Shown piece by piece: positions 23,259-32,766 of a stretch of DNA of 64,000 nt. Position 1 is the first letter of the stretch. Every line of letters begins with the position of its first letter. The translations under genes and the position numbers were made by a program. The notes below the pieces were generated by a model. The model worked only from the letters and a program-made list of their open reading frames with translations, was not told the origin of the DNA and searched no databases. Origin of the DNA: a virus (taxonomy: Duplodnaviria > Heunggongvirae > Uroviricota > Caudoviricetes > Ackermannviridae); the IMG/VR virus record IMGVR_UViG_2974514734_000001, positions 32,683 to 96,682 of that record; one strand, written 5' to 3'.

Positions 23259-23525
23259 TTCTTCAAAAGTCTTTCAAAATCAATAACGTCCGGCAAATTG
23301 CTGGGCGTTTCAATTAATAAGCCAAGGTATAATGGCCCAATTGTAAAGCGAGGGAAATTACTTTGCCCAAACCATTTTTGCGTTCAGGAGTTGACTCTCT
23401 TGACTCACAGTTTAAACCCAGCGAAGTTTTAATCCAACAGATTGAAACTAATCGCGAATTCATAGAACACATGCTGGCAAAGCCGGAAGGTGAAGCCGCT
23501 CAAACCACCAAAGAAGGTAATAACG

Positions 23526-25742
23526 ATGATTGAATCATTAACATTTAAAAATGCGGTAGCAACTGTCGCGCCGTCTAACCATGTAATCGTTGTGGACATC
23601 TCCGGTTCCATGTATCGTTCACTTCCAGAAGTCCGTAAGCATCTGAAGGAAAATCTCCCGTCTCTGGTTAAACCAGAAGATACCGTCAGCATTCTTTACT
23701 TTTCATCCCGTGGTGATTTCGGTACGGTATTCGCTGGCCGTCAGATCAATAGCGCGACCGATCTCAGTGAAATCAATAAACTGATTGACCGCTTCCTGCA
23801 ACCGTCAGGTTGTACGGGATTTGTAGAACCTCTGAAGTTGGCTGCTGAAACCGCGATGAGCCTGAACAAACCTGGTTATGTCAATAACCTGGCGTTCATG
23901 ACCGACGGCTATGACAACTGCTGGCGCTCTAATGAAATCCTGGATGCCGCTGAAGTACTGCCCAAAGCGTTTGATAACATTACCTTCATCGAATACGGTT
24001 GGTACTGTAACCGCGAACTGCTGTCTCTGATGTCCGAGCGTTCTGGCGCGACCCACGTGTTTGCCGAAGGTCAGACTGAATATCAGACCGAATTGGAAAA
24101 TGTACTGAAATCATCTACGCCGAAAGTGGTTGTTGATGTCCCCCTGGTTTACACTCATGCCATCTACGTTGAAAACGGCGTGGCAACTGTGCTAGCCGTA
24201 CAACCAGATGAAGAACACCCGATTGGCCACGTCAGCATCCCTGAAAGCGTTTCTCAGCTGTGGGTTGTAAACCCCGACATGATCGACCAGCTGGATAATC
24301 TGGCAGACACCCAGGCGGCATACGTGCTGGCATTCTATGGCGTGTACACCATGGACGCCGATCTGGTCTGGGCCGCGCTGAAGAAGACGGGTGACGTCCG
24401 CTTCATCAAACAATACAGCAACTGTTTCACCAAGCAGGACTATTCCAACATCAAAGTCGATCTGACCCAGGCTATCGTGGATGAAACTCTGCGCGGCGTA
24501 GATGGCATCGATTACAATATGGTTCCAGCTGAAGATGCAACGACCATTGTTGATGTCTTGACCTACCTGGCCGAAGCCGATGTCTCTGTTGTCACTAAGC
24601 ATCCACTGTTCTCTTACAACAGTATTGGGCGCGGTACTGTACAGAAAGTTGACGACACCGAAGACAAATTGGCCGAAGAGATTGCGAATGCGACTTCTAA
24701 AGAAGAGCGTAAAGCCCTGGCGCTCAAACTGGCCGAGCACGAAGATTGGACCCCCGAATTCAATCCAGCAGATGATAAAGGGATTGTCCCGATTAGCAAT
24801 CTGGTCTATAATTCAGAACGTCCTAACATTAGTGTACAAACAGTTCAACACGGAACGGTTGTTGTACCCGAGTTCGTACAGAAGAAATATGAACTTCCTG
24901 AAGAGTTGGGAACCTGGCGTTATCGCAATTACACCATTGTCAAGGATGGTATCATCAACCTGAAAACAATGCCTATTACTGCGGATTCTCCGATTGTTCG
25001 GGCTAAGGTGGCACAGGATTTGACTGCCATGGGTGTTCATGTGTTTGGTGGACCGGAAGTCTTCATTGTAAATCTGGAAAGTGTCCCAATGGTTAACCGC
25101 GCTATGACAAAGAATATCAGTGCTGCTGAATTCTTTGCAGACAATGTGCGACGTGAAGCATTGAAGGCGAAACAAAAAGTTCTGAAATTCTATCGTGATG
25201 AGCTGGTTGGTAAAGGCAATGCTGCTGGTTTGGCTTCAAAATATGGCAAAGAAGCGGCTGATTTCCTGTCAGCAAACGGCATTCGCGACTATGGATTTTC
25301 ACCGAAGACTTCTTCTGTAGAATCAACCGATGTCTATATGAGTCGTGAATTGAATGTGAAAATCAAAGGCGCATCTTCACTGCCGAGCATCGCGTCTGTT
25401 ATCAAAAAACAGACGGACGGTAAAAAACTGAATGTCGCTGATCAGCTGATCGCTAATGCCCTGGCTGAATACAATGCATTCGTTAAATCACCGATGATCA
25501 CCAGTGTACCGGAAGAGACTCAGAAAAAGCTGATCGAAAGTTGGATTGGTGATGCAGCAAAAGCAGCTATCAACGAAGTTCGCGCTCTGAACAAAACGCT
25601 GTCCAAGGTAGTTTATGGGATTGTTGCAGGCCATGGTTGGTTTACCGACCTGGATTTGGAAGAATCCACTATGGATGTGGAAGTTGATGGGGTGAAATAC
25701 ACCGTCACTGCCGAACTGGCCGAAAAAGAAGTCAAAATCTAA
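23526..25742 (+). CDS. von Willebrand factor A (vWA) domain protein, 738 aa from the ATG start (track ORF 23490-25742 is 750 aa from an upstream GTG)
   Basis: MIDAS motif VVDISGSMY (DxSxS) plus downstream T/D residues; ATG at 23526 with GAAGG RBS (the track uses an upstream GTG at 23490). Confidence 0.65.
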   Translation: MIESLTFKNAVATVAPSNHVIVVDISGSMYRSLPEVRKHLKENLPSLVKPEDTVSILYFSSRGDFGTVFAGRQINSATDLSEINKLIDRFLQPSGCTGFVEPLKLAAETAMSLNKPGYVNNLAFMTDGYDNCWRSNEILDAAEVLPKAFDNITFIEYGWYCNRELLSLMSERSGATHVFAEGQTEYQTELENVLKSSTPKVVVDVPLVYTHAIYVENGVATVLAVQPDEEHPIGHVSIPESVSQLWVVNPDMIDQLDNLADTQAAYVLAFYGVYTMDADLVWAALKKTGDVRFIKQYSNCFTKQDYSNIKVDLTQAIVDETLRGVDGIDYNMVPAEDATTIVDVLTYLAEADVSVVTKHPLFSYNSIGRGTVQKVDDTEDKLAEEIANATSKEERKALALKLAEHEDWTPEFNPADDKGIVPISNLVYNSERPNISVQTVQHGTVVVPEFVQKKYELPEELGTWRYRNYTIVKDGIINLKTMPITADSPIVRAKVAQDLTAMGVHVFGGPEVFIVNLESVPMVNRAMTKNISAAEFFADNVRREALKAKQKVLKFYRDELVGKGNAAGLASKYGKEAADFLSANGIRDYGFSPKTSSVESTDVYMSRELNVKIKGASSLPSIASVIKKQTDGKKLNVADQLIANALAEYNAFVKSPMITSVPEETQKKLIESWIGDAAKAAINEVRALNKTLSKVVYGIVAGHGWFTDLDLEESTMDVEVDGVKYTVTAELAEKEVKI

Positions 25743-25750
25743 ATTCATCT

Positions 25751-25775
25751 GGCGGGGAAACCCGCCTTCATTTTG
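25751..25775 (+). terminator. terminator GGCGGGGaaaCCCGCC plus TTCATTTT
   Basis: GC stem, T-rich tail. Confidence 0.5.
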
Positions 25776-25779
25776 AGAT

Positions 25780-26097
25780 ATGCTTATGTCAAACAAACCA
25801 ACTTATGTTGAAGTAATGCGTGTTCTGGCTCAGTACGCTTGTGACAACCTGAACATGGAAACTTGGCGCGACGGTGACCATAAAGAAAAGTTCGATAATA
25901 TCGACGACAACATCGATGCGTTGGCTCCTCTTCGGGCCAAGAGCGATCTCGGCGGTGATGATCTTGACATGATTGAACTCATCATGGAAGTTGAAGAACA
26001 ATATGATGTTGAAATCAGTGATGAATGGGTAGGCAAACATGGTGATGATCCCACGCTCGGCGAATTAGCTGAATTGGTAGTTGCCCTCCGCAAATAG
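25780..26097 (+). CDS. acyl carrier protein-like acidic protein lacking the phosphopantetheine-attachment serine
   Basis: LGGDDLDMIELIMEVEEQYDVEISDE corresponds to ACP [26 protein letters not shown], with the DSL Ser replaced by Asp. Confidence 0.5.
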   Translation: MLMSNKPTYVEVMRVLAQYACDNLNMETWRDGDHKEKFDNIDDNIDALAPLRAKSDLGGDDLDMIELIMEVEEQYDVEISDEWVGKHGDDPTLGELAELVVALRK

Positions 26098-26103
26098 CAG
26101 AAG

Positions 26104-26170
26104 TCCCCAACGGTTTGTTGGGGATTTTTACTTTTAGGGGGTTTACTTGAATAAACATTTGCCGTATTAT
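26104..26170 (+). promoter_or_regulatory. PeSL-like cassette: hairpin TCCCCAAC…GTTGGGGA, then early promoter GTTTAC (26141-26146), 18-bp spacer, TATTAT (26165-26170), containing TTCAATAAC
   Basis: Read directly. Confidence 0.5.
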
Positions 26171-26223
26171 TCAATAACTGGCTAACGTGGGGTTGGTCAG
26201 ACATTGAATAGGTTGGTTATAAC

Positions 26224-26463
26224 ATGTCAAATAAAAAAGTAGAAACGACAGTAGAAATTGATCGTAATTGGGGATTACTCCGCGCTAAAGGTTTTCGTCG
26301 TGTTTATATGACCAAGGAAGTTTATGTTCAGCGTCGCGACGTTATTATCAGCAAGAAAGGTAAAGAGTGGGTTGCTGAAGAAGTTGACATTGAAACGGGT
26401 GTCGTCGGTAAGGTTAAAGCCAAGGCCGCGATCCTCTTCGCTCTTCTGAAGCATATCAATTAA
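26224..26463 (+). CDS. hypothetical protein (79 aa)
   Basis: ORF downstream of the cassette. Confidence 0.45.
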   Translation: MSNKKVETTVEIDRNWGLLRAKGFRRVYMTKEVYVQRRDVIISKKGKEWVAEEVDIETGVVGKVKAKAAILFALLKHIN

Positions 26464-26522: not shown

Positions 26523-27035
26523 ATGACCGATCAACAAATTCAAGATTTATTTTACCTCGTCCATGATAAGTCCCATATCATGCAGCCCGGTACTGTTTCT
26601 CCGGAAGTGGCAGACCTCATAAACGCGCTTAGAACTCGCCAGACCGTGACCCTTTGGCGTGGGTTGTGCAAGGAAGATGTTGTCTTCCTTGATTCTATGT
26701 TCAACGCCCGCGATGCATTCAGAACCTGGTCGTGTGCCCTGAGTATGACCGAATCAAAATCTTATGCCAAGAAATTCTCCCATGGCTACAAAACGAAGGC
26801 GTTGCTGCGCGTGTTATGCCATCGCACTAAAACGACCGAGCGTCCGTTGGGGCTGAACGTCGTGGAAGCCTTGGTCGCCAACATTAACACCAAAGATGAA
26901 GGGGAAGTTGATATGCTGGCGCTGGCGCGGATAGAGCAGGAATGGATATTCAATCGTCCTCGCGTCGCGCCCGTATCCCACATCGTCAACAAAGACGGTT
27001 ATTCTGTTTATACCGTTAACCTCATCACATTATAG
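26523..27035 (+). CDS. putative R-S-E-type ADP-ribosyltransferase (Mod/Alt-like)
   Basis: Ordered motifs TLWRG (Arg), ALSMTES (S-x-S/T), RIEQEWIF (Q/E-x-E); conserved AGGAACTATACCATGAC start context; motif-only inference. Confidence 0.3.
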   Translation: MTDQQIQDLFYLVHDKSHIMQPGTVSPEVADLINALRTRQTVTLWRGLCKEDVVFLDSMFNARDAFRTWSCALSMTESKSYAKKFSHGYKTKALLRVLCHRTKTTERPLGLNVVEALVANINTKDEGEVDMLALARIEQEWIFNRPRVAPVSHIVNKDGYSVYTVNLITL

Positions 27036-32487: not shown

Positions 32488-32766
32488 ATGAACCGTACTG
32501 ATTTTATCGCCCACATCGCCCAAACCCAGGGTATGACCAAAGGCGAAGCTGAGAAAATCGTTGCATCTTTTATTAATGGCGTGAAAACTGCAGTCGCGGC
32601 TGGCCAATCTGTCCAATTCGTAGGCTTCGGCGCGTTTGAAGTTAAACATCAGGAAGCGCGCACTGGCCGCAACCCGCTGAACGGGCAAGCGATTCAGATC
32701 GAAGCGAAAAATGTTGTTAAATTCAAAGTCGGTGAAGGTCTGAAAGCTGCTGCCAACGGCCAGTAA
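32488..32766 (+). CDS. HU/IHF-family DNA-binding protein
   Basis: MNRTDFIAHIA…GFGAFEV…RTGRNPLNGQAIQI…; GGAG RBS. Confidence 0.85.
   Translation: MNRTDFIAHIAQTQGMTKGEAEKIVASFINGVKTAVAAGQSVQFVGFGAFEVKHQEARTGRNPLNGQAIQIEAKNVVKFKVGEGLKAAANGQ

Follow-up and report, generated by a model that had tools for sequence, protein, structure and literature searches.

In enterobacteria, few proteins have as many connections as acyl carrier protein (ACP), which takes part in the synthesis of fatty acids, lipid A, phospholipids, biotin and lipoate and also binds SpoT, IscS and MukB. AcpS forms ion pairs with D35, E41 and E47/E48 of E. coli ACP (bioRxiv 2025.01.28.635281), and Arg112 and Arg116 of IscS form salt bridges with ACP D35 and D38 (PMC13343975). 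IscS binding is lost in the ACP variant S36T (PMC13343975). Unmodified (apo) ACP is a strong inhibitor of glycerol-3-phosphate acyltransferase and of growth in E. coli, and SpoT is reported not to bind it (PMC3896788).

ACPs that lack the phosphopantetheine-bearing serine also occur naturally. The mACP of Plasmodium is a purely binding subunit in which the residue replacing the serine lies in the partner interface (bioRxiv 2021.04.13.439690, also PMC8547962). There the replacement is Phe, and the partner Isd11 has co-evolved and lost its phosphate-binding Arg; in the mitochondrial ACP-Isd11 complex an arginine holds the phosphate of the cofactor (bioRxiv 2021.04.13.439690). One published search for serine-less ACPs recovered them, among eukaryotes, only in apicomplexans and Vitrella (bioRxiv 2021.04.13.439690). 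Phages also encode canonical ACPs, such as that of the phiCbK-like Brevundimonas phage Bajun (phrog_5934), which keeps the serine in the motif DLGADSLD and could thus be a substrate for a host PPTase. Here, we describe an ACP-like phage family that resembles these canonical phage ACPs in being small, in having the ACP fold and in lying among early or replication genes of large phages, but that never has the serine.

The DNA analyzed here (the window, 64,000 nucleotides) belongs to Salmonella phage barely (Kuttervirus, Ackermannviridae; NC_049505 / MT074477), with 100% identity over 3 kb around the gene of interest, gp057; subtracting 32682 from an NC_049505 coordinate gives the window coordinate. 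The open reading frame at 25780..26097 on the + strand is real, and its translation agrees with the sequence quoted in the earlier note. RefSeq starts gp057 at the second in-frame ATG (25786) and labels the product "acyl carrier protein." Use of the alternative in-frame ATG at 25780 gives 105 aa, the same length as the version in Vi01; gp057 residue numbers refer to the 103-aa form. The features of the locus are listed in the table below.

Homologues of gp057 were found by tblastn in 273 phage records. All 13 of the records that we opened were Ackermannviridae, the host genera of the remaining records fit this family, and the gene is kept in all Ackermannviridae genomes examined. The homologue in phage Sajous1 is represented by a single peptide in one virion mass-spectrometry table. 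In the literature that we covered, which is incomplete, no paper dealt with the gp057 family beyond annotation or noted the absent serine.

Features of the gp057 locus, in window coordinates
Feature	Position	Strand	Basis
gp056, 738-aa vWA-domain protein, candidate phage partner	23526..25742	+	PF00092
GC hairpin GGCGGG-GAAA-CCCGCC followed by TTCATTTT, after the vWA gene	25751..25775 (stem-loop 25751-25766)	+	terminator scan; fold
gp057 CDS, ACP-like protein, 103 aa	25786..26097	+	ORF list, RefSeq, PF00550, phrog_4154, AF2
Hypervariable segment, residues ~24-50, long helix I-helix II connection with extra short helices	25855..25935	+	alignments
GAT codon of Asp59, which aligns with the phosphopantetheine-bearing Ser36 of ACP	25960..25962	+	gap-free B. 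subtilis and E. coli ACP alignments
Helix II "recognition helix," residues 59-73, with conserved acidic residues; D58 directly before it	25960..26004	+	DSSP on AF2 model; alignment
Family motif W81-x-G-x(2)-G-D-D-P-T90 (end of helix III, loop, helix IV cap)	26026..26055	+	alignment
Hairpin (CCCCAAC/GTTGGGG core) then TTTTT, directly after the stop codon	26099..26130	+	fold
Alt/Mod-like ADP-ribosyltransferase gene, downstream of gp057	26523..27035		annotation

The relationship of gp057 to ACPs is clear from several searches, as the earlier note had proposed from the letters of the gene. Residues 55-100 match the Pfam family PF00550 (PP-binding, clan CL0314) with 30.1 bits against a cut-off of 20.8 (E 5.9e-7), and the phrog_4154 profile, annotated as "acyl carrier protein," matches with an E value of 8.5e-56 (residues 3-105 on profile positions 1-108 of 108). 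A phmmer search of all PDB sequences returned 113 chains, essentially all of them ACPs, and aligned the gp057 stretch DLGGDDLDMIELIMEVEEQYDVEISDE without gaps to B. subtilis ACP. The AF2 model, built from 25 family sequences, is an ACP four-helix bundle (pLDDT 86.8, pTM 0.81), so the absence of this fold, which the earlier note had named as a reason to abandon its reading, was not encountered. A Foldseek search of the PDB with this model gave ACPs for all of the best 50 matches, with target-normalized TM scores up to 0.79. DSSP places helix II of the model at residues 59-73, with residue 59 exactly at its start.

Like E. coli and Salmonella AcpP and B. subtilis ACP (PDB 2x2b, 1hy8, and 1f80), gp057 has the four-helix fold with a similar net charge and pI. 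Its helix II shares the equivalents of AcpP D35, L37, D38, V40, E41, M44, E47, and E48. Identity to AcpP is 55% and is confined to a 31-residue stretch from helix II to helix III, which BLASTP aligns without gaps (17/31 identities for the E. coli protein). Unlike AcpP, gp057 has Asp or, in most of its relatives, Glu in place of Ser36, carries a W..GDDPT motif and is extended ahead of helix II by about 25 residues, with further short helices. It also reaches only half of the cut-off of the AcpP equivalog model (TIGR00517, 34.3 against 70.45), and all 15 of the ACP models listed, NF002148-51 among them, score below their cut-offs. The protein likewise falls short of the mACP family PF14573 (PP-binding_2), at 29.1 bits against a cut-off of 32, and a Toxoplasma structure (T. 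gondii, 3ce7) is a weak match.

We then examined the residue that would carry the prosthetic group. In gap-free alignments with both B. subtilis and E. coli ACP, Asp59 falls on Ser36, so the D-S-L serine of carrier proteins is absent and the replacement noted earlier is real. An offset of the motif, with another Ser taking the modification site, would have been the obvious objection; we saw no offset, and no Ser stands in any invariant or near-invariant column of the family alignment. The sole conserved hydroxyl residue is Thr90, which probably caps helix IV, and no Cys is conserved. Since the serine acceptor is replaced, canonical attachment of 4'-phosphopantetheine, and with it acyl loading, is impossible, in agreement with the earlier note.

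The replacement is strictly acidic throughout the family. Of 37 homologue clusters, 33 have Glu and four have Asp at this position, and none has Ser; across 13 phage loci the codons are GAT, GAC, GAA, or GAG. A profile search of 1.8 billion representatives recovered full-length relatives at 33-52% identity, all of which have Asp or Glu here, in motifs such as FGCDELD, LQGDDLD, FWADELD, FDADELD, and others. A 90-aa version in Serratia phage 3M (Miltonvirus) has Glu (LWFDELD), though it lacks other motifs of the family. Among the family relatives compared, none has Ala, Gly, Asn, or Thr at this position. Because only Asp and Glu occur, and never one of these four residues, across such deep divergence, the alignments argue for selection for negative charge at the position of the phosphate and not for a simple loss of serine.

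The remainder of helix II is also highly conserved. Residues L55, G56, G57, D58, L60, D61, I63, E64, M67, E70, and E71 are invariant in the family, as are V75, I77, and D79, and in total there are 31 invariant columns among 25 family sequences at identities down to 46%. Residues D58, D61, E64, E70, and E71 correspond to D35, D38, E41, E47, and E48 of E. coli ACP and are invariant or nearly so. With all of these acidic docking residues kept, a binding or decoy role is reasonable. Helix II is, however, where the PP-binding superfamily as a whole is best conserved, and its conservation is therefore not specific evidence for mimicry of a host protein. More particular to the family is the motif that ends helix III and leads into helix IV, in which W81, G83, D87, D88, P89, and T90 are invariant; it is missing from the canonical ACPs compared and from the 90-aa Miltonvirus version.

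Purifying selection acts on the gene: Nei-Gojobori estimates over ten pairs put dN/dS at 0.03-0.56 in both halves of the protein. The ACP-like protein also diverges more than its upstream neighbor, with pairs drawn from 12 phages sharing on average 54% identity in the ACP-like protein and 79% in the vWA protein (gp056). In barely and Escherichia phage PhaxI, the vWA proteins are 98% identical, the ACP-like proteins 67% and the 79-aa proteins encoded downstream 85%; at the DNA level, identity is ~98% up to ~25860, falls to 40-68% over ~25865-26270 and then returns to 82-93%. Alleles are most dissimilar in the hypervariable segment (residues ~24-50), in which DNA identity to PhaxI drops from 98% to 40%. 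Synonymous sites are saturated between the two ACP-like alleles (pS 0.75). Given this drop in identity inside near-identical flanks, together with the saturation, these are old, divergent alleles swapped by recombination, with one boundary inside the ACP-like gene. Such allele replacement is typical of accessory, host-facing phage genes, although it is no proof that gp057 has a host-facing role.

The fold, the missing acceptor and the annotation of the genome make a role as a carrier very unlikely. Among the 202 annotated features of the phage, none is a PPTase, ketosynthase, acyltransferase, or acyl-ACP synthetase, although numerous genes carry only the label "hypothetical" and enzymes of the host might be used instead. 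The reading that we favor, while holding it tentatively and at somewhat less than an even chance, is that gp057 is a non-carrier protein of ACP fold that acts by protein-protein binding at an ACP-docking site, with a host ACP client as the candidate target. Binding rather than carrying, functional selection of the acidic residue, and the identity of the target are what we infer here. The acidic helix II would dock on the Arg/Lys patches of ACP client enzymes, where the Asp or Glu carboxylate would sit at the position of the cofactor phosphodiester and may imitate its negative charge, and gp057 would then competitively occupy the docking site during infection.

The known systems offer partial models for such a role. 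The toxicity of apo-ACP in E. coli is a functional model for a decoy, in that an ACP without acyl groups inhibits a client, and by this analogy the idea of an apo-ACP decoy, raised in the earlier note, is plausible. The E. coli effect is, however, an overexpression artefact of the host's own protein, whereas gp057 is viral, permanently unmodifiable, and carries an added negative charge. The primary work on this toxicity is reportedly that of Keating, Carey and Cronan (1995). As regards targets, glycerol-3-phosphate acyltransferase and AcpS would be the best-grounded candidates in the host. SpoT and IscS need the prosthetic group, so a plain "apo" mimic would miss both; if the carboxylate substitutes for the phosphate, then SpoT, IscS, and MukB, which depend on holo-ACP, might also be targets. 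That a carboxylate could imitate the cofactor phosphate is chemically reasonable as a candidate mechanism, because an arginine holds that phosphate in the mitochondrial ACP-Isd11 complex. Like Plasmodium mACP, gp057 has the serine replaced; unlike mACP, where the replacement is hydrophobic, it has an acidic residue, as if a phosphate-like charge were being kept, and it is found in a virus and outside PF14573.

Host ACP clients are thus the leading candidate targets, and the main rival is the adjacent phage vWA protein. Under this alternative, which we regard as possible but unlikely, gp057 would serve another phage protein as its dedicated subunit or regulator, with gp056 the most obvious choice. 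The N-terminal vWA domain of gp056 (PF00092, 32.2 bits, residues 20-184) contains a DxSxS motif (D24-I-S-G-S28) whose D24, S26, and S28 are invariant in 39 homologues, and which we read as a putative MIDAS. Metal coordination in a vWA MIDAS is completed by a ligand Asp or Glu, as is established for integrin I-domains, and such a ligand could be provided by the invariant acidic residue at the helix II tip. The AF2 model of gp056 (pLDDT 86.1) matched only vWA, ArnB, and Sec23/24-type (beta-sandwich) folds in Foldseek; lipid or carrier enzymology in gp056 was considered and rejected on this basis. A partnership would also be in keeping with the family W/GDDPT motif, which suggests a private interface, and with the precedent of Plasmodium mACP, whose replacing residue lies in the partner interface. 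The W81/GDDPT motif and the extra 25-residue N-terminal elaboration could serve a phage-specific partner.

The arrangement of the genes initially looks favorable to such a partnership. The vWA gene lies directly 5' of the ACP-like gene, with a gap of 35-55 nt, in all full-length loci examined (Kuttervirus, Limestonevirus, Taipeivirus, Agtrevirus, and metagenomic relatives down to 33% identity) save that of Serratia phage 3M; in most of these loci the order is vWA, ACP-like and a protein of roughly 80 aa, and in a few the third gene differs. Adjacency counts for little here, however, as synteny extends over the entire region in this phage family, and in Miltonvirus three genes lie between the vWA and ACP-like genes. 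The vWA protein is also found more widely, in 502 phage records against 273, and in Straboviridae (e.g., Citrobacter phage Miller) it occurs at 48% identity with no ACP-like gene after it. Furthermore, the exchange of ACP-like alleles described above took place independently of the vWA gene (67% against 98% identity), and the Asp/Glu ACP-likes of other phages have no vWA neighbor.

Transcription would join the two genes. The earlier note had placed gp057 between two terminators, as a unit with its own ribosome-binding site. Hairpins are indeed present on both sides: the upstream one folds at -13.8 kcal/mol (z -3.1) and the downstream one at -19.0 kcal/mol (z -5.5), and only the upstream hairpin was picked up by the consensus terminator scan, from which the downstream one was missing. 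The picture of an independent unit was not supported. A promoter scan found no sigma-70-like promoter on the + strand from 25300 to gp057 (480 nt upstream), and only ~10 nt separate the T-tract of the upstream hairpin from the gp057 start codon; gp057 must therefore be transcribed by read-through from the vWA gene, and this co-transcription is a further point for a partnership with gp056. We read the upstream hairpin as a leaky terminator or stability element that transcription has to pass on its way to the ACP-like gene. Phages Marshall (+ strand) and Miller (opposite strand) both have an annotated terminator at the corresponding site. A T4-type late promoter (TATAAATA) was considered near gp057 and rejected, as there is none within 18 kb. 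The start at 25786 is preceded by a weak GAGA 8 nt 5' of the ATG.

It appears improbable that gp057 is a polyanionic decoy of a generic kind, such as a mimic of nucleic acid that would block a DNA-binding defense or nucleoid protein of the host and use the ACP fold only as a compact acidic scaffold. The net charge of gp057 is -16 and its pI 4.16, its mosaic allele exchange is like that of anti-defense genes, and host-takeover genes lie nearby, including the Alt/Mod-like ADP-ribosyltransferase and a superinfection-exclusion gene. Host AcpP is, however, equally acidic, and the whole family is AcpP-like in this respect (net charge -12 to -17, pI about 4.1-4.6), so that the charge would have been inherited with the fold. 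Moreover, what is mainly conserved is the specific set of ACP docking residues rather than any periodicity of charge, and neither PDB nor viral fold searches revealed similarity to a known DNA mimic.

We consider it highly improbable that gp057 still acts as a carrier through a non-canonical attachment, such as an ADP-ribosylated Asp or Glu or another modified residue. ADP-ribosylation of acidic residues is known chemistry, the Alt/Mod-like ADP-ribosyltransferase gene lies only 430 nt downstream, and a Mod_ADP_RT gene is found near one divergent relative. The transferase is not a conserved neighbor, however: in Limestonevirus, Taipeivirus, and phage SE14, endonuclease V takes its place or it is absent, and for this reason we demoted the idea that the neighboring transferase ADP-ribosylates Asp59. 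Nor is any Ser, Thr, or Cys conserved apart from the helix-capping Thr90, and acyl-handling enzymes are missing from the annotation of the genome. Finally, a functionless, decaying remnant of a captured host acpP would explain the lost catalytic serine and the sub-threshold scores with ACP equivalog models, but it is effectively refuted by the selection data, with an intact gene in 273 phage records, dN/dS of 0.03-0.56, 31 invariant columns in 25 sequences and a replacement limited to Asp and Glu.

Returning to binding at an ACP-docking site, we looked at acidic ACP-like proteins outside the Ackermannviridae family. About 40 of the best 150 representatives in the profile search have Asp or Glu at the serine position, although the query profile slightly favors such forms. 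One of them (P0082) lies on a 147-kb phage-like contig beside genes for a ribonucleotide reductase, a dUTPase-like protein, a Gam-like protein, ThyA, and DHFR; another (P0054) adjoins ThyX, and two more (P0053 and P0057) are surrounded by small genes with little space between them. P0146 is on a bacterial contig, and all Asp/Glu ACP-likes from cellular genomes are metagenomic proteins. On the unrelated contigs that we looked up, there was no vWA neighbor and no common downstream partner. One weak Mu Gam-like match had suggested a shared downstream partner and a Ku/vWA link, but this was rejected, as the downstream proteins are related neither to each other nor to gp056. When viral contigs were searched for distant relatives, P0040 gave none and P0038 one partial match. 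Together with the canonical, serine-bearing DSL protein of the Brevundimonas phage, these sequences indicate that phages encode both kinds of ACP, and the acidic kind seems to have more than one origin.

The clearest consequence concerns annotation. More than 200 genome records name this product "acyl carrier protein," and PHROGs treats it as an auxiliary metabolic gene; the label implies a function in lipid metabolism that is impossible for the gp057 sequence. The phage and bacterial Asp/Glu forms also widen the range of serine-less ACPs beyond the eukaryotic apicomplexans and Vitrella, and the strictly acidic replacement raises the question of whether a carboxylate can act as a mimic of the phosphopantetheine phosphate at ACP-client interfaces. 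Members of the Ackermannviridae have been proposed for phage therapy and biocontrol directed at Salmonella, E. coli O157, Klebsiella, and Dickeya, and a viral ACP that is permanently barred from loading would offer a tool for probing ACP docking sites, and perhaps for inhibiting them. On a broader and speculative view, which we think doubtful at present, the Asp/Glu-for-Ser look-alikes could form a recurrent, previously unrecognized class of phage host-takeover proteins, with independent origins in Ackermannviridae and other large phages, in which a carboxylate imitates the phosphodiester of holo-ACP. If this were true, a viral protein would occupy the sites that read the holo- or acyl-ACP state (SpoT, IscS, MukB, PlsB, and AcpS), and lipid, stringent-response, or chromosome-organization signaling would be uncoupled from the real metabolic state of the cell during infection.

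The gene directly upstream of the ACP-like gene (gp057) of Salmonella phage barely encodes gp056, a protein with a von Willebrand factor A (vWA) domain. It is highly conserved, with matches in 502 phage records from several families, ranging from Ackermannviridae and Straboviridae to an Alishewanella phage, Bacillus phage AR9, and Rhizobium phages. The protein of Citrobacter phage Miller (Straboviridae) is 48% identical to gp056. In an AF2 model (pLDDT 86.1), the first ~400 residues resemble proteins with a vWA domain plus a beta-sandwich, such as archaeal ArnB (Sec23/24 core) and 4fx5. No clear structural match was found for the modeled C-terminal ~340 residues. A 56-residue ORF that begins with TTG extends 8 nt into the vWA gene and is absent from the annotation of NC_049505, in which the window spans positions 32683..96682. 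Phages fGh-Ecl02, PhaxI, SKML-39, Marshall, and SE14 each have an annotated hypothetical protein of ~56–58 residues, encoded in the equivalent position immediately ahead of the vWA gene and running into its start. The ORF may be an overlooked small gene.

Downstream of the ACP-like gene lies a gene for a 79-residue protein that is 85–91% conserved in most relatives. A sigma-70-like promoter match at 26142–26170, the region's only one, lies ahead of it. The Alt/Mod-like gene that follows is a second mosaic spot, and from ~26570 onward DNA identity to PhaxI falls to 25–60%. In Dickeya phage phiD3 the same slot is occupied by endonuclease V (denV), and in Salmonella phage SE14 by an “endonuclease”. 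Conserved modules of phage barely are also split by several homing endonuclease genes, including gp018, gp021, gp049, and gp074, and such insertions are consistent with the strong local mosaicism around the ACP-like gene.

Features of the region and ACP-like genes at loci outside the window (L handles, local coordinates)
Feature	Location	Strand	Remarks
Small ORF	23363..23533	+	
vWA protein (gp056), 738 aa	23526..25742	+	phrog_2426, function unknown
79-aa protein	26224..26463	+	phrog_804, function unknown
Alt/Mod-like “RNA polymerase ADP-ribosylase”	26523..27035	+	phrog_832, E 1.3e-7
ACP-like, 147-kb phage contig	L023 7001..7249		neighbors: RNR, dUTPase-like, Gam-like, ThyA, and DHFR genes
ACP-like, phage-like contig	L027 7001..7297		adjoins ThyX
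ACP-like, 139-aa form, bacterial contig	L025 7001..7420		adjoins PPIase and enolase-superfamily gene
ACP-like, 90 aa, Serratia phage vB_SmaA_3M (Miltonvirus)	L030 5570..5842		Glu at serine position (LWFDELD)

ACP-like proteins with Asp or Glu in place of the serine were also found beyond Ackermannviridae, at the first three outside loci listed. In the phage and phage-like contigs among these, the stop codon of the ACP-like gene and the start of the following gene overlap.

Finally, the ACP-like protein of Serratia phage vB_SmaA_3M has neither the W..GDDPT motif nor the long N-terminal insertion, and its gene lies downstream of the vWA gene, with three small genes in between. This 90-residue protein may be nearer the ancestral form of the ACP-like family.
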